A DNA stretch of 30,642 bases from Pseudomonadota bacterium. GTDB lineage: Bacteria > Bdellovibrionota_B > Oligoflexia > Oligoflexales > RGVZ01. The notes below the pieces were generated by a model. The model did no database searches and was not told where the DNA came from. It saw only the letters and a list, made by a program, of their open reading frames with translations. This document shows, one piece after another, positions 1 through 5,944 of this stretch (within the stretch, counting starts at the first letter, position 1; the number at the start of each line of letters is the position of its first letter). The position numbers were made by a program, and so were the translations under genes. The stretch is from contig JBEGVZ010000118.1 in assembly GCA_041178085.1 (NCBI GenBank), forward strand, positions 1 through 30,642, in the 5' to 3' direction.

Positions 1-555
1 CTCGCAATCGCCGACGAACTGAAACTCAGCAGAGACCTCAAACGCCAGCTGCTGATCAGTGCCCTGTGCCATGACATTGGTAAGATCGGTGTGCCGGATT
101 CGGTTTTGAAAAAGGCGTCCCTTCTTTCGCCGGAGGAGTACCAGGAAATGAAGCTACATCCTGTGCTCGGCGCCGAGATCGTGCAAAAACTGCCGGGGGC
201 GCAGCGATTCCTTTCCGGCATCAAGTATCACCACGAACGGTGGGATGGATCCGGATATCCGGACGGACTGAAAGGGGAAGAGATTCCTTTTTTCGGCCGC
301 ATTGTTGGCATCAGTGACGTATTCGACGCAATGGTTTCCGGACGTGCTTACAGCGGTTTCATTGACCAGTCGGATGCCGTTGAACGCCTGCACGAGGAAA
401 AGGAACTGTTCGACCCGGAGATCCTGAAGGCCTTCGCCCGTGCCCACGATCGCGGAACACTCACCATCAAGACCAGCACCCGTCAGAATGCCATCGAAGA
501 AGAGCTCTCCCTGCTGAAGATCGAGATTGAGGATTCAGCAAAAAACAAGCGTTAG
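1..555 (+). CDS. HD-GYP domain protein (c-di-GMP phosphodiesterase family), 5'-truncated by the window edge
   Basis: Frame is open from base 1 (LAIADEL...ALCHDIGKIGVPD). It contains HDIGK, HHERWDGSGYPDGLKGEEIP and DVFDAM, the HD-GYP signature motifs. Confidence 0.93.
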   Translation, partial: LAIADELKLSRDLKRQLLISALCHDIGKIGVPDSVLKKASLLSPEEYQEMKLHPVLGAEIVQKLPGAQRFLSGIKYHHERWDGSGYPDGLKGEEIPFFGRIVGISDVFDAMVSGRAYSGFIDQSDAVERLHEEKELFDPEILKAFARAHDRGTLTIKTSTRQNAIEEELSLLKIEIEDSAKNKR

Positions 556-608
556 GCCGTCCTGTCCGCCATGTTCCCCTGCCTGCCAACAATCTGTGAA
601 TTTTGCGC

Positions 609-614
609 TACAAT
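609..614 (+). promoter_or_regulatory. Possible sigma70 -10 element for the motor cluster
   Basis: TACAAT lies ~50 nt upstream of ATG 665, with a GAGGAG SD at 654-659. No convincing -35. Confidence 0.3.
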
Positions 615-664
615 GGATAGTGACCCTAAGTCCCTTTTTTTCCTTTCTTCACTGAGGAGCCGCC

Positions 665-1468
665 ATGTGGGCTGAACTCGCGTTGAGTTTCAAGCACGGC
701 AACATCTACGTGCTATCGATCTTCGCCATCGGATTCCTGTCGGCGCTGATCTTCTTCGAACGCTTCGTGATGGTGCAATTCGTTTACAACCTGAACTTTG
801 AGCGTTTTCTGCTCAATATCCGCCGTGCGATCGCCGCTGAAGATCTTGACCGTGCTGTTTCACTCTGCAAGAACGCGGGCCGCACTTCCCTGCCGATGAT
901 TGCGCTGAAGGCTCTGGAAGCTGCTGAGGCTGACCCGACGACAGTGCGCGGCGCGATTGAGGAAGAGGCCATCCAATTCCTGCCCAAACTTGAAGCGCGG
1001 ATGACCCTGCTGCCGGCCCTCGCAACGCTGGCCATCCTGGCGGGTGTCCTTGGTACGCTTGATGGCGTATGGGCAACCTTTCATGCCATCGATGTCCTTG
1101 ATTCCGCAAAAAAACAGGCGACGGTTGCCAAGGGTCTTGCGGCGAGCCTGAGCCCTGCTGCCATGGGCATCCTGGTCGCTGCCTTCACGATCTTCGGCCA
1201 ACAGATTCTCCGCGGCTATGCGCTGCGGGTCGTTGAGAAGATCCACTTGGGCGTTTCCGTGCTGAATAACCTGCTCGTCCCAAGTGAGTCCACAGCCTTT
1301 GTGCCGATTGCTGCCGCGGCAGCCGGAGGCGGCATGATGTCTGCTGCATCCCATTTGGGCGGAGAACCGGGCAAGGGAACGGATATTTCTGACGCAGGAG
1401 CCAATGCAAATGCAACGCCGGTCGTCACTGCAAGTGAAGATATCAAGGACGAAGAAGAGATTATCTGA
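665..1468 (+). CDS. MotA/TolQ/ExbB-family proton-channel subunit (AglR-like)
   Basis: Strong SD and three TM segments. FFERF follows TM1. LPKLEAR..LATLAILAGVLGT..G and AKGLAASL...AMGILVA align with ExbB/AglR TM2 and TM3. Confidence 0.88.
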   Translation: MWAELALSFKHGNIYVLSIFAIGFLSALIFFERFVMVQFVYNLNFERFLLNIRRAIAAEDLDRAVSLCKNAGRTSLPMIALKALEAAEADPTTVRGAIEEEAIQFLPKLEARMTLLPALATLAILAGVLGTLDGVWATFHAIDVLDSAKKQATVAKGLAASLSPAAMGILVAAFTIFGQQILRGYALRVVEKIHLGVSVLNNLLVPSESTAFVPIAAAAAGGGMMSAASHLGGEPGKGTDISDAGANANATPVVTASEDIKDEEEII

Positions 1469-1973
1469 CGGTGGGTTCCAGGTTCACGCCCTGGTTGCCC
1501 TCACCGGGATGATGCTCTGCTTAGGTTCGATGCTGGCCGTGGTCATGGCGCCGGGCTCCTACGCCATTGTTCACACTGAATTCCCGGTGGTCCCGGCATC
1601 ACTTGATGACTCAGGCCTGCACAGGTTCACGGAGCGGCCGGGCCATTTCATCAAGGCGACCACTCCGGCCATTGTCATGACCATGGATGCGATGTTCCTT
1701 GGTGATCTTGAAGCCTTCTCGGAGCGCTACCCTGACGCGCGTGACAAGATCCGGGTTGGGCACAAGGACTCTTCGCCACAGGTCGGAAAATTCCTTGCGG
1801 CGATGAAGAAGTGGGTGGCTGCGCGCGCTGCAAACAGAACTTGGCGGAACGAAGGGGTCGTGGTGTTTGCTCCGGCCAACAACATACCGGCATCGATTGT
1901 GATTGAAGTCATGGAAGCGTTGCAGTCTGACGACACCTTTTCGAGGGTCATCCTTGCGAGCGGGTTGATTTGA
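1410..1973 (+). CDS. Divergent ExbD/TolR-like subunit 1 (AglQ/AglS-like)
   Basis: Basic N-terminus and a single TM. The C-terminal VVFAPANNIPASIVIEVMEAL...FSRVIL resembles the ExbD periplasmic fold, and the gene follows exbB. Start is uncertain; 1410 chosen for the AGGAG SD at 1396-1400. Confidence 0.65.
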   Translation: MQRRSSLQVKISRTKKRLSDGGFQVHALVALTGMMLCLGSMLAVVMAPGSYAIVHTEFPVVPASLDDSGLHRFTERPGHFIKATTPAIVMTMDAMFLGDLEAFSERYPDARDKIRVGHKDSSPQVGKFLAAMKKWVAARAANRTWRNEGVVVFAPANNIPASIVIEVMEALQSDDTFSRVILASGLI

Positions 1974-2536
1974 TGCAGATCCTGCCAGGAAAAAAGAAAG
2001 TCCGGATGCTTGACGAGGCCTTTGACCGGGCGTCATCGCGCCTTGAAGAGGGAACTCAAGTCGACATCTCGGTCGGCATGCTTGCGCTTCTGATAACCGG
2101 CGTGATCGCCCTGGCCTGCGGCGTCAAGGCATTCGATGTCGCAAATCCACGCTTGTCCTATCCAGGTCAGCCACTGGCAATGGACCTTGATGCAAACGAA
2201 ACGGCGCCAGGCATCTGGTTTTCCATGGCCCCAGACGATGACAAGGTCATTCTCACGACCGATGACCGCAGAATCTTTGAGTGGTCTCTTGACCCGGAGG
2301 AAGCGCTTGATAGCGCAGGCTACCGCGAATTCGAAAAGTTCCTCAAGGAACGCCGCCGGCAGATTGTCGAGAATCTTGTTCTTTCGATGTCCCGGGAGGA
2401 CCTTGACACCAGGTCGATGGCGGTTGTGTCCCTGGATGACCGGCTGACTTATGCCCACTTCAAGCCGGTAATGCTCGCACTTGTCGGGGCCGGCATTCGT
2501 TCCTATGGCTTTGAAACCCTCGTGGCGGAAGATTGA
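1973..2536 (+). CDS. Divergent ExbD/TolR-like subunit 2
   Basis: TGATG stop/start overlap and a single N-terminal TM. The C-terminal AVVSLDDRLTYAHFKPVMLALVGAGIRSYGF matches the ExbD pattern (D...Y....VM..L..AG). Confidence 0.72.
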   Translation: MQILPGKKKVRMLDEAFDRASSRLEEGTQVDISVGMLALLITGVIALACGVKAFDVANPRLSYPGQPLAMDLDANETAPGIWFSMAPDDDKVILTTDDRRIFEWSLDPEEALDSAGYREFEKFLKERRRQIVENLVLSMSREDLDTRSMAVVSLDDRLTYAHFKPVMLALVGAGIRSYGFETLVAED

Positions 2537-2539
2537 ACC

Positions 2540-4174
2540 ATGGCCGCTAAGGCGAAGAACAAAGGCCTGATGCTGTTTGTCGAGATCCTGCAAAACGGGG
2601 CGACCGTTGCGCGTTCCACCAGGCCCCTTGGCAAGACAGGCAGGATCGAGATTTCTGGCGGCTCCTCAGGCGCCCTCGTCATACCTCTGTACGGGCAGCG
2701 CGCGAATTCCAGGATATTCTCATCATCCGGCGGGAAAACATTCCTTGAGCTTGATCGCCTCTGGGAAGGGTTTGTTGTCTCCACCGGCGAGGTCGTCAAC
2801 ATCACTCGCAAGCATCGCCCTCCAGGCGGACTTGAGCTTGGTCGCGGAGACTACGGAAGCCTGGTGAACGGCGACTTGATGCTGCTGTTCAAAGTGGGTC
2901 CCAAACCGAAATCGGTCAAACATGCCATTCTGAGAATCTACCGGCCCGGGCTTTTCAGCGGTATGGTCCGTGATCGTCTGGAAATTCCATCGGCTGCCTA
3001 TGCGACCCTATTGGCCACCCTGCTCGTCGGGGGGTTTGGCTTTGGCTTGCTGCAACACCCCGGTCGACCGAAACTTGCGTTTGAGCTGCTCGACGAACCC
3101 TACACGCTCCCTTTCATTGCGCCGGGGCACCTTGAGACCGCTCCAGAGGCCCTGCAAAATAACCTGGTGCGCTCCGGATTCGTGCCATCGGTCATCCGTT
3201 ATTACCGTGCCGTGATCGCGGCGCTGACCGGCCAATCCAAAGAGAGCGACCCGCTGACCTTTGCCCAGACAAGAAAAAGCACACAAGCCGCCTATAGCGC
3301 ACTGAATGCGGAGCTCGAAGAGCAGCGGCACGCACAAGAACGGACGGCACAGGCTGCGCTGAGCCGCCCTCTTTCCGCTATCATGTCAATCCCAGCCCTT
3401 GAGGGTGAGACCATCAACGGGGAAATAAAACGCCTGCAAGACAAGATCGAGCTTCACCAGAAAGGCCTGCAAAGAAACCTTGAGATGAAGCGTAAAGTGA
3501 AGGAGCTTTTTCCGAAGGACGTCGATTACAACTTTGACGCTTACCGTGACATCAAGCCGGGCCGGAAGGGGCTGCTGAATGAGGAGACGATCGCAGCTCT
3601 GGCCAAGATCCGCCCTTTTGCCGAAATGACCGACGAAGAGGCAATGTACTTTCAGGCCTCACGCGCCGGCATCCTGGCCCGGGCCATGAGTGGTTCCAAA
3701 AAGGATGAGCATCCCGCGACGGATAACACACCTGTCGGCCTTGGCTCGCGTGTGGCATTTGCAACCTACGTTTTCGACCCGGAAAGCCTTTTTGACGACA
3801 AGAAGGTCGATGCCCTTCAAGGTTCGGGGGTAGACCCGCAGAAACCAAGAGTGATCAAGGTGGTGGAACCACTCATCGGTGAACTGGATCCCAAGCTGGT
3901 TGAAACCACAATCAGGAAATACCGTTACGAGTTACAGTCTTGCTTTGAGAAAGCCCTGAAGCGTGACAAGTTCACCCGGGGCGCGATGGAGTGGCGCTGG
4001 CGGATTGACTCCACCGGCAGGCTGGATGACCTGCATCTTGTCAAAACCAGTATCGAAGACAATGAGATGTCTCGCTGCGTTCGCCAGAAAATGGCCCGTT
4101 GGCGCTTCCCCCGACCTAAACGGGGCAGCATTGAGGTCACCTATCCATTTGAGTTCAACCCTTCGCGCGGCTAG
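2540..4174 (+). CDS. GltG/PglI-like protein with TonB-like (AgmX/PglI) C-terminal domain
   Basis: Beta-rich N-terminal region, one TM (~aa 151-170) and a helical middle. The C-terminus LDPKLVETTIRKYRYELQSCFEKAL...G.MEWRWRIDSTG...CV..KMARWRFPRPKRGSIEVTYPFEF is typical of the AgmX/PglI C-terminal domain. Confidence 0.8.
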   Translation: MAAKAKNKGLMLFVEILQNGATVARSTRPLGKTGRIEISGGSSGALVIPLYGQRANSRIFSSSGGKTFLELDRLWEGFVVSTGEVVNITRKHRPPGGLELGRGDYGSLVNGDLMLLFKVGPKPKSVKHAILRIYRPGLFSGMVRDRLEIPSAAYATLLATLLVGGFGFGLLQHPGRPKLAFELLDEPYTLPFIAPGHLETAPEALQNNLVRSGFVPSVIRYYRAVIAALTGQSKESDPLTFAQTRKSTQAAYSALNAELEEQRHAQERTAQAALSRPLSAIMSIPALEGETINGEIKRLQDKIELHQKGLQRNLEMKRKVKELFPKDVDYNFDAYRDIKPGRKGLLNEETIAALAKIRPFAEMTDEEAMYFQASRAGILARAMSGSKKDEHPATDNTPVGLGSRVAFATYVFDPESLFDDKKVDALQGSGVDPQKPRVIKVVEPLIGELDPKLVETTIRKYRYELQSCFEKALKRDKFTRGAMEWRWRIDSTGRLDDLHLVKTSIEDNEMSRCVRQKMARWRFPRPKRGSIEVTYPFEFNPSRG

Positions 4175-4177
4175 ACT
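4149..4177 (+). promoter_or_regulatory. Putative sigma70 promoter for the rnj operon
   Basis: TTGAGT (4149-4154), 17 nt, TAGACT (4172-4177). It overlaps the stop codon of the upstream gene. Confidence 0.55.
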
Positions 4178-4231
4178 CTCGCCGGACGGGGCCGCCCGGG
4201 CGTGCCCCCTGGTCATTCATTCGCGGGTGTA

Positions 4232-5944
4232 ATGGTGCTTTCAGAAAATGAAGATTCAGTCCGTCTGCTGCCGTTTGGCGGCTGCGGCGAATTTGGAATG
4301 AACCTCACGGGTTATCTTTACCGCGGAAAATTATATGTCGTCGATTGCGGGGTCATGTTTCCGGATCCCTCAAAACTTGGCGTGGAAGCCATTTATCCGG
4401 ACGTCAACCCCTGGTTCGAACGCGCCGGCGGTGTGCATGCCTACCTGATCACCCACGGTCACGAGGATCACATCGGGGCCTTGCCCTACGTCCTCGACCG
4501 ATGGCCAGCTCCAGTCTATGCGACGCCGTGGACTGCCGCCCTGATCAACGCGAAATTTGTCCGCCGCAAAGTAGCCGGGCGATTTGAGGTGAATGAGGTC
4601 GCACCGGGAGGCCGGCTGAAGTTTGGCGACGTCAAAGTGGACTACATCCCGGTCAACCATTCGATCCCCCAGGCTTCTGCGTTGTTGATGCAGTTTGGCC
4701 GGCACCGGATCTTTCATACTGGTGACTTCCGGATTGATTTCCAGACGCAGTACGAGCCGATGATGGACCTTGAACAGATCCGTGCCATCGGCAGGGAAGG
4801 CGTCGATCTTCTTGTCGCCGACAGCACAAATGCCCACAGGCCGGGCACAGGCCCAGGCGAACTTTCCGTCGTGGAACCTTTAGCCGAGATCATGCGCAAC
4901 TGCGAAGGCGCGATGATCATTTCGACTTTTGCCAGCAATTATTGGCGCATCAAGACTGTGGCCAACCTGTGCAGCAAACTTGGCAAGAAGCTATTGATCC
5001 TTGGGGGTGGCATCGAACAGGCCATCGCCATCGCAGGCCAAACCGGTTTTGAACCTCTGCCAGACGACATCCGGACAACCGAAGAGCAAGTGGCATCAGG
5101 TCATGTGCCGCGTGACCGCGTCGTCGTCCTTGCCACCGGCAGCCAGGGAGAATGGCGCTCTGCACTTTCGCGCTTGAGCGCCGGCGAACACCGAAGCTTC
5201 AAGGTCCTTCCAGGAGACACGGTGGTTTTTTCCTCGCGCATCATTCCCGGCAACGAAAAGAGTGTCCTCTGGCTGATCAACGGTTTTATCCGGGCCGGCG
5301 CAAACGTGGTGACATCAAGAGACAATCCGGGAATCCATGTCAGCGGTCATGCCTACCGGGACGAAATCAAGACGCTTGTCGAGTGCTTGAAACCACGCTT
5401 CTTCATCCCCATGCACGGGACGTTTAGTCACCTTGATTCCAACGAAAAGGTGATCGATGAGCTTGGTCTGGACGCTACCGGCACCATGTTGATGGAAGAC
5501 GGTGACATAGTGGAATTATCAGACAAGGGCGTCAGCAAAGCCGGGGCAGTCGATGTCGGCATACTTTACGTTGACTCGGATTCCTACGCCTCGCTGACCA
5601 AAGAAGTCCTGCGCGAAAGGCTCAGAATCGGAGAGGGCGGCTGCGCCTTCATCACCGGGGTCTTTGACTTGGGTGGAAAACGCTGGCTGCGAGCGCCAGA
5701 CATTTTGCTCCAAGGCATCGAATTCCGTCCAGAAGATGGTCATGCGGGCCCCGTCAACCGGGAGGTGTGGCTGGAAGAGGCCGCGATGTACGTTGCTGAC
5801 GCCGTGACCAGCCTGGCCTCCCGGCAGCAGGAAATTGATGGCGAGGCGCTGGAAGAGGAAGCGCGCCTGACCTTGCGTCGACTTCTTTTTGGTTCACTCA
5901 ACCGTAAACCTTCCGTGTTTTCGAGGATTCACTGCTTCGGATGA
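4232..5944 (+). CDS. rnj: Ribonuclease J
   Basis: PFGGCGEFGMN, VDCG, THGHEDHIG (metallo-beta-lactamase), VNHSIP, HTGDF, TGSQGE, IPGNE and HVSGHA motifs. Start 4232 preferred over GTG 4202. Confidence 0.95.
   Translation: MVLSENEDSVRLLPFGGCGEFGMNLTGYLYRGKLYVVDCGVMFPDPSKLGVEAIYPDVNPWFERAGGVHAYLITHGHEDHIGALPYVLDRWPAPVYATPWTAALINAKFVRRKVAGRFEVNEVAPGGRLKFGDVKVDYIPVNHSIPQASALLMQFGRHRIFHTGDFRIDFQTQYEPMMDLEQIRAIGREGVDLLVADSTNAHRPGTGPGELSVVEPLAEIMRNCEGAMIISTFASNYWRIKTVANLCSKLGKKLLILGGGIEQAIAIAGQTGFEPLPDDIRTTEEQVASGHVPRDRVVVLATGSQGEWRSALSRLSAGEHRSFKVLPGDTVVFSSRIIPGNEKSVLWLINGFIRAGANVVTSRDNPGIHVSGHAYRDEIKTLVECLKPRFFIPMHGTFSHLDSNEKVIDELGLDATGTMLMEDGDIVELSDKGVSKAGAVDVGILYVDSDSYASLTKEVLRERLRIGEGGCAFITGVFDLGGKRWLRAPDILLQGIEFRPEDGHAGPVNREVWLEEAAMYVADAVTSLASRQQEIDGEALEEEARLTLRRLLFGSLNRKPSVFSRIHCFG

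Follow-up and report, generated by a model that had tools for sequence, protein, structure and literature searches.

A diverged second AglR-AglQ/S-GltG-type operon in Oligoflexia with Asp-less axle helices and a conserved ring carboxylate

Positions 665-4174 on the forward strand of a 30,642-nucleotide stretch of DNA from a Pseudomonadota bacterium of the class Oligoflexia (GenBank assembly GCA_041178085.1, contig JBEGVZ010000118.1; the whole stretch is called the window below) form one operon of four tightly packed genes, the open reading frames ORF1 to ORF4. They encode an ExbB/TolQ-family ring protein, two unlike single-helix ExbD/TolR-like proteins and a GltG/AgmX-type TonB-like protein. 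Because the closest paralogue of ORF1 in its own genome is an AglR-like gene on contig C67 (phmmer 1.3e-18), the operon is a diverged second AglR-AglQ/S-GltG-type envelope module, which exists beside a canonical Agl/Glt-like cluster in the same genome. The transmembrane (TM) helices of both axle subunits lack the canonical Asp, and the second TM helix of the ring subunit carries an Asp, D133. We tentatively favor the reading that the proton-coupling pair has been remodelled to a ring acid and an axle base, as in GldLM, and rate its likelihood somewhat short of even.

To our knowledge, the axle Asp is treated as the universal proton-binding site of the MotAB, PomAB, ExbBD, TolQR, AglRQS and ZorAB motors. 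A review of 5:2 motors (PMC9389320) and a study of MotAB evolution (PMC12505986) describe the Asp and the Thr ring as conserved, and the newly proposed families in a 2025 survey of force transducers are still reported to have both the Asp and the threonine ring (PMC12204202). Under detergent stress, any one of the TolQR substitutions D23A, T145A, T178A and E173A is lethal (PMC12583513). In GldLM, GldL E49 and GldM R9 form an ion pair, which is proposed to come apart on protonation and so drive the cycle (10.1101/2020.05.11.089193). In the literature searched, no description of an Asp-less ExbD/TolR/MotB family was found.

The four genes, with lengths in amino acids (aa) and the evidence for each, are:
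665..1468, forward strand: ORF1, 267 aa, ExbB/TolQ/AglR-family ring subunit with three TM helices (Pfam MotA_ExbB, hhalign, C67 paralogue)
1410..1973, forward strand: ORF2, 187 aa (189 aa from the ATG at 1404), first axle subunit, single TM helix with the N-terminus inside (AlphaFold2 (AF2), Foldseek, VIA)
1970..2536, forward strand: ORF3, 188 aa (likely start at the ATG at 1973), second axle subunit, diverged ExbD/TolR protein (hhalign, family profile, Foldseek)
2540..4174, forward strand: ORF4, 544 aa, GltG/AgmX-type TonB-like transducer (NCBIfam NF033768)

The ring subunit and its pore residues

Over residues 79-192, ORF1 scores 56.6 bits with the Pfam MotA_ExbB model (PF01618), for which the cut-off is 22.9. 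An hhalign comparison of 37 aligned ORF1 orthologues with a set made up of E. coli TolQ, E. coli ExbB and three paralogues from the window's own genome covered 199 columns at 98.4% probability. A small tree, weak and with long branches, places the ORF1 family on the side of the C67 paralogue and apart from the TolQ/ExbB group. The residues that bear on ion coupling in the ring and axle subunits are:
701..703, forward strand: ORF1 N13, periplasmic start of TM1, Glu/Asp in sister orders (alignment counts)
1055..1057, forward strand: ORF1 T131, equivalent of TolQ T145 and ExbB T148 (hhalign)
1061..1063, forward strand: ORF1 D133 (gat), ring carboxylate of TM2, aligned to TolQ W147 (sequence, hhalign)
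1142..1159, forward strand: ORF1 TM3 stretch A160-A165, Ala at the positions of TolQ E173 and T178 (phmmer, hhalign)
1485..1487, forward strand: ORF2 H26 (in 'QVH'), unique to this species (His in 1/69)
1536..1538, forward strand: ORF2 A43, in a column that is mostly Arg in the family (alignment counts)
2063..2077, forward strand: ORF3 D32 to G36, from the cytoplasmic boundary to the canonical Asp position (AF2, hhalign)
2126..2128, forward strand: ORF3 K53, basic, five residues before the periplasmic end of the TM helix (alignment counts)

The profile alignment pairs ORF1 G127, G130, T131 and G134 with TolQ G141, G144, T145 and G148, which make up the GxxGTxxG motif. Both the TM2 Thr and the Asp close to it, which a sequence-only reading of this DNA had reported, are present, and T131 falls on TolQ T145. 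The same reading was right that TM3 lacks the canonical Glu and Thr, as A160 (1142-1144) pairs with TolQ E173 and A165 (1157-1159) with TolQ T178. D133 is nearer the periplasm than T131, and TM2 reaches its periplasmic end about 9-10 residues above it. The pore-lining GxxG(T)xxG motif and residues P117, W136 and F139 are nearly invariant in ORF1. A pairwise phmmer alignment of ORF1 with TolQ from the PDB shifts TM2 by three residues and puts D133 one residue before the Thr position. We did not adopt this register: the profile alignment supports the one given above, as do the GxxGTxxG motif and the closer paralogue.

Two axle subunits without the canonical Asp

The TM segment of ORF2 reads ...GGFQVHALVALTGMMLCLGSMLAVVMAPGS and contains zero Asp or Glu residues. 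The AF2 model of ORF2 (predicted local distance difference test score, pLDDT, 79) puts the TM helix at residues 21-46, numbered from the ATG at 1410, and with the sequence it bears out the earlier claim that this helix has no acidic residue. Residue counts here and below come from 70 distinct ORF1 sequences and 69 distinct ORF1/2/3 triplets, with locus L017 dropped from the ORF2 and ORF3 counts for its masked bases. ORF2 columns 29-37, in the 189-aa numbering, are acidic in 0/69 orthologues.

ORF3 reads ...EEGTQVDISVGMLALLITG. An hhalign comparison of the ORF3 family with six canonical ExbD/TolR sequences gave 86% probability (E 4.8e-6) and placed D32 (2063-2065) on TolR V19 and G36 (2075-2077) on TolR D23. 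D32 is two residues past the Asn of the 'INIVP' stretch and four ahead of Asp23, and because the AF2 TM helix of ORF3 begins at residue 33, it sits at the cytoplasmic boundary. The sequence-only reading had set the Asp of the QVD motif on the Asn of INxTP by eye and not at the canonical Asp; the second part stands, G36 being at that position in the profile alignment, and the first was off by two residues. The G36 column is acidic in 0/69 orthologues, and the D32 column holds Asp in 4/69. Each of the six canonical proteins used as controls, taken from E. coli and from this genome, carries the TM Asp. Because neither ORF2 columns 29-37 nor the ORF3 G36 column is acidic in any of the 69, the Asp-less columns are not the chance of one sequence.

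ORF3 belongs to the ExbD/TolR family in a diverged form. Its own match to Pfam ExbD (PF02472) is below the cut-off (12.5 vs 25.4 bits, E 0.15), and 8 of 33 orthologues match this family at E <= 0.01, the best at 6.6e-6. The ORF3 family profile matches ExbD periplasmic domains in the PDB at E 0.0036, and the nearest named atlas cluster is ExbD; a single-sequence search of the PDB with ORF3 gave nothing meaningful. An ExbD-like fold is predicted for ORF3, and the best Foldseek match of the model is TolR 5by4 (E 9.9e-4).

ORF2 is probably ExbD-like only by topology, position and predicted fold. No Pfam family is matched by any of 36 ORF2 orthologues, hhalign to the canonical ExbD/TolR sequences gave 1.6% probability, and neither the ORF2 profile nor the single sequence found anything meaningful in the PDB. 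On the structural side, the best Foldseek match is again TolR 5by4 (E 9.2e-3), and VIA-align to ExbD 8vgc_A aligned 74/75 residues with Z 7.6 and a root-mean-square deviation of 2.8, tied with unrelated folds. For ORF2 the atlas points to a Myxococcota cluster, 25% of whose members have ExbD. A profile search of 1.84 billion representatives retrieved 201 clusters at E <= 1e-3, of which 166 remained at 1e-10 and 88 at 1e-30. Because only 201 clusters were found at E <= 1e-3, ORF2 is a small private family. A common origin of ORF2 and ORF3 is not shown by sequence, because hhalign between them gave 3.4% probability.

The two axle subunits are predicted to form a heterodimer through their periplasmic domains. 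Complex prediction of ORF2 with ORF3 scored 0.64, and the best of 3 controls scored 0.00. A score of 0.64 was reached by 116/157 solved complexes and 2/215 mismatched pairs, a calibration that is only rough here because we supplied the alignments ourselves. At least 87% of contacts agree between the prediction runs, the pLDDT of the partner is at least 73 and the interface is made by the periplasmic domains. Structures of ExbD/TolR dimers are known, so the score may stem from resemblance to them. A library representative of 354 aa, P0008, is a read-through fusion of ORF2 and ORF3. It was set aside as support for the heterodimer for its inconsistent topology, and probably arose from a lost stop codon or a sequencing error.

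Residue states across clades and the coupling mechanism

The operon is kept across the class Oligoflexia, whose members are freshwater bacteria, and is syntenic in 73/74 related loci. ORF1 to ORF3 are adjacent, with genes of ORF2 and ORF3 size after ORF1, in 53/54 loci and in 20/20 further loci, the exception (L056) stopping at a contig end, and ORF4 was matched in 51/54 loci. Matches to ORF1 at E <= 1.8e-28 occur in 109 of the 131 genomes of a phylum-level set; at E <= 1e-5 they occur in 129/131, the weaker ones being paralogues. The ratio of nonsynonymous to synonymous substitution rates (dN/dS) against four orthologues of the same genus is 0.04-0.07 for ORF1 and 0.16-0.18 for ORF2, rough values with dS near saturation; for ORF3 and ORF4, dS was saturated. 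ORF1 is under strongly purifying selection.

Position 133 of ORF1 is Asp or Glu in 53 of the 55 sequences from the window's order, the exceptions being L054 (His) and L071 (Asn). The sequence-only reading had named a lack of D133 conservation in close homologues as a result that would refute it, and this is not what is seen. Among the 15 sequences from other orders it is never acidic (Asn 4, Gln 6, His 3, Ile 2). The proposal that D133 co-varies with loss of the axle Asp fails on this distribution, the Asp loss being family-wide and D/E133 being found in none of those 15. T131 is present in 7/7 rows of the genus, 36/47 of the rest of the order and 4/15 of other orders. Since D/E133 is found in 53/55 and T131 in 43/54 rows of the order, D133 is better kept than the canonical Thr. 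Position 13 is Asn in 52/55 and Asp in 3/55 of the order, and Glu or Asp in 15/15 from other orders. An acid at position 13 or 133 is found in 68/70 ORF1 sequences. Position 160 is Glu in 1/69 rows; small residues accompany D133 there, and Gln, His or Asn accompany N/Q/H133 in 12/13 rows of family f19, in which the TM2 Thr occurs in only 2/13. Position 165 is Thr in 37/47 rows of the rest of the order and in 0/7 of the genus.

Basic residues on the axle vary with the same clades. The ORF2 A43 column, with the periplasmic end of the TM helix three residues further on, is Arg in 41 and Lys in 1 of the 47 rows from the rest of the order, and Ala in 7/7 rows of the genus; in the wider library it is Arg in 73 and Lys in 5 of 109 rows. 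In other orders the aligned or adjacent residue of ORF2 is Glu in 8, Gln in 6 and Asn in 1 of 15 rows, and never Arg. The ORF3 K53 column is Lys in 7/7 rows of the genus, Lys or Arg in 14/15 rows from other orders, and His in 19 and Gln in 5 of the 27 rows from the rest of the order. Three states follow the clades: ring Asp133 with an axle Arg on ORF2 in most of the order; ring Asp/Glu133 with axle Lys53 on ORF3 in the window's genus; and ring Glu/Asp13, with Asn/Gln/His133, together with axle Glu/Gln on ORF2 and Lys on ORF3 in other orders. The sequence-only reading had also suggested that the protonatable group has moved to the other subunit. This survives in part, as D133 is kept and travels with an axle base; the other orders speak against a simple move from the ExbD Asp to D133 of the ExbB-like subunit. 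Loci L039 and L076-L081 have Asp/Glu at the cytoplasmic start of the ORF2 TM helix and an Arg at its periplasmic end, with A131, D133, R160 and A165 in ORF1, and are a third charge arrangement within one family.

In the remodelled-pair reading, the ORF1 ring would enclose the predicted ORF2-ORF3 heterodimer in a 5:1:1 ratio, on the pattern of TolQ5R2 and of the AglR5QS model. D133 on each ring subunit would face an axle base, which would be ORF3 K53 in the genus and the ORF2 Arg in most relatives. The ring D133 and the axle base would together replace the usual axle Asp and ring Thr/Glu. The uptake of a proton by D133 would open the ion pair and thereby power a step, following the scheme put forward for GldL E49 and GldM R9. 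The work would be passed to ORF4, and the TonB-like C-terminal domain of ORF4 would make contact with a partner in the outer membrane or the periplasm. A bolder form of this reading, which we regard as doubtful, holds that within the ExbB/TolQ lineage a 5:1:1 motor inverted the polarity of its coupling pair, with an Asp on every ring subunit and a Lys or Arg on one axle helix, and that the acid changed places among TM1, TM2 and the axle in sister lineages.

Several observations weigh against a remodelled pair. By the profile alignment, D133 is 200 degrees round the TM2 helix from the pore-facing Thr, and the depths may mismatch, with D133 about 9-10 residues and the axle bases 3-5 residues below their helix ends. 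The co-variation comes from few independent events, namely one deep split plus the genus, and it has exceptions. L071 has N133 and yet keeps the Arg; L055, L057, L067 and L072 keep D133 without an Arg or Lys on ORF2; the secondary losses of D133 in L054 and L071 come without an acid at position 13; and three f19 rows with N133 and an ORF2 Gln have an acid only at position 13. Asp or Glu is found at the cytoplasmic start of the ORF2 TM helix in 7/69 sequences, all from sister genera of the same family, in a column that adjoins H26 of the window, so that a canonical-like acidic site may persist in part of the ORF2 family. Finally, the loss of three of the four residues essential in TolQR could simply mean that conduction was lost.

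This last point leads to a rival reading, that of a non-conducting tether or scaffold, in which the TolQR/AglRQS architecture and the GltG-like link were kept and ion conduction was lost. D133 and the axle Lys/Arg would then hold the axle fast in the ring through a structural salt bridge, as might suit an envelope-spanning anchor or a signalling platform. We consider it unlikely, though it explains several features. Of the four residues that are individually essential in TolQR, three are missing from the window (axle Asp, TM3 Thr and TM3 Glu), and family f19 has largely lost the TM2 Thr too. The same genome already has four canonical motors in its further MotA/ExbB-family loci, a Tol-Pal-like cluster (C1), an ExbBD-like pair (C82), MotAB (C102) and the Agl/Glt-like cluster (C67), the small subunits of which all carry the Asp. 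The conserved cytoplasmic peptides at the ORF1 tail and the ORF2 N-terminus would suit docking. However, a pure scaffold makes it costly to keep a buried carboxylate in 53/55 sequences and to re-supply it at position 13 in all 15 that lack it, and the near-invariance of GxxG(T)xxG, P117, W136 and F139 and the strongly purifying selection on ORF1 also count against it.

A narrower role for D133 is improbable in our estimate. It would replace only the missing TM3 Glu, the counterpart of TolQ E173, as the periplasmic proton attractor, and the acceptor would lie elsewhere, at an axle residue so far overlooked, such as ORF2 H26 in this species, or at water or backbone sites. TolQ E173 is described as an entrance residue (PMC12583513), and the location of D133 on the periplasmic side of T131 would suit such a role. 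The near-absence of Glu at position 160, set beside the acid at 133 or 13 in 68/70 sequences, and the joint change of positions 160 and 133 in f19 also speak for a stand-in. Two points count against it. His is found at position 26 in this species only, with Pro at this place in the other six members of the genus, and the cytoplasmic half of either axle helix has no other conserved titratable residue. Last, the operon could be a decaying, functionless duplicate of Agl/Glt motor genes, as a diverged second copy beside the complete cluster on C67 might suggest; this is scarcely credible and is contradicted by the conservation data, with all four frames intact in 73/74 loci across the class, dN/dS well below 1 and an ORF2 family that spans 201 clusters.

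Transducer, genomic setting and relation to known motors

ORF4 scores 87.4 bits with the AgmX/PglI C-terminal domain model NF033768, for which the cut-off is 40. Its score with the GltG equivalog model NF033760 is 56.7 bits, with 650 required, and this match takes in the C-terminal part only. ORF4 consists of an N-terminal cytoplasmic domain, a TM helix at about residues 150-172 and a C-terminal domain encoded at 3884-4159. In Myxococcus GltG, an FHA domain precedes the TM helix. Pfam finds no FHA domain in ORF4, the residues 1-147 of which (window 2540-2980) form a conserved, beta-rich cytoplasmic domain without a Pfam match. This N-terminal domain may be a diverged counterpart of the FHA domain of GltG. 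Next to it, E148 in the motif 'LEIP' before the TM helix (window 2981-2983) is invariant in all 25 full-length orthologues aligned. E148 was considered as a compensating acid and rejected; it is a GltG-type trait and not a compensation, since 'LEIP' is also present in the canonical GltG-like paralogue on C67.

The first two genes of the operon overlap:
1410..1468, forward strand: out-of-frame overlap of ORF1 and ORF2 (1404-1468 from the upstream ATG; 59-65 nucleotides), from the sequence and the comparison of loci

The same bases encode the C-terminal 'DEEEII*' of ORF1 and 'TKKRLS' of ORF2. The overlap is 47-77 nucleotides long in nearly all loci, and both peptides are nearly invariant across the class. 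It is real dual coding, because there is no in-frame start codon between the overlap and the ORF2 TM helix. The ORF1 tail EDIKDEEEII (residues 258-267, window 1436-1468) is acidic-hydrophobic, with D262, E263-E265, I266 and I267 nearly invariant. In style it recalls a docking peptide, and a counterpart is absent from TolQ and ExbB.

The flanking genes are of the housekeeping type and encode an HD-domain protein, RNase J, a NUDIX protein, a PP2C protein, an M23 peptidase and SecA. The window contains none of GltC, GltD and GltE, and the operon is not flanked by outer-membrane genes. A promoter and terminator scan of positions 400-4500 gave nothing exceeding the shuffled expectation, and no PADLOC defence-system model, Zorya motors included, matched the ORF1-ORF4 proteins at E <= 0.01. 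The canonical cluster of the same genome (G000:C67:8437-19199, locus L065) is a complete Agl/Glt-like cluster, with genes for a TolQ-like protein, two ExbD proteins with the canonical Asp, OMP_myx_plus, GltC, a 1048-aa TPR protein, a GltE-like protein and a 743-aa GltG-like protein.

The closest known relative in design is the Agl-Glt gliding and focal-adhesion core of Myxococcus xanthus, AglR-AglQ-AglS with GltG. Both systems have one ring gene, two different ExbD/TolR-type genes and a GltG-type single-pass protein, which in ORF4 has the cytoplasmic domain before the TM helix and the AgmX/PglI (TonB-C-like) C-terminal domain. AglR interacts with GltG in two-hybrid assays and belongs with it to a published 'core complex' (PMC3169522), and an AlphaFold model of AglR5-AglQ-AglS-GltG has a heterodimeric AglQS axle (PMC11761067), which parallels the heterodimer predicted for ORF2-ORF3. 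The Oligoflexia module differs in that ORF2 and ORF3 both lack the TM Asp and the ORF2 family does not match Pfam ExbD; in that ORF1 lacks the TM3 Glu and Thr but has D133; in that ORF4 falls below the GltG equivalog score and has no FHA domain by Pfam; and in that GltC/D/E do not adjoin the operon, those genes lying in the separate C67 cluster.

The E. coli proton motors of the 5:2 type, TolQ-TolR-TolA and ExbB-ExbD-TonB, share the ring fold, the TM2 GxxGTxxG motif and a downstream TonB-C-like transducer with the operon, and the ExbD/TolR-like periplasmic fold is predicted for ORF3 and, with less assurance, probably for ORF2. In contrast to their homodimeric axles, the operon encodes two unlike axle subunits. 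It has Gly or hydrophobic residues in place of Asp23/Asp25, Ala in place of E173/E176 and T178/T181, and an Asp where TolQ and ExbB have a Trp. With the GldL-GldM/PorL-PorM motor of Bacteroidota, which serves type 9 secretion and gliding, the module would share a ring carboxylate and an axle Arg, a resemblance of mechanism only. GldM, unlike the predicted ORF2-ORF3 axle, is a homodimer. Its ion pair is placed towards the cytoplasmic end of the bundle, and the polar cluster described here is in the periplasmic half.

The analysis defines an unnamed protein family, that of ORF2, and a second GltG-coupled system in Oligoflexia. An Asp-less module that is kept class-wide under purifying selection, with a buried carboxylate in its ring, is a natural test of what the 5:2 mechanism requires. 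The module would link the Tol/Ton lineage mechanistically to GldLM. If the coupling pair did invert its polarity and the acid did hop between helices, the proton-binding site of 5:2 motors would be evolutionarily portable and not fixed to the axle.

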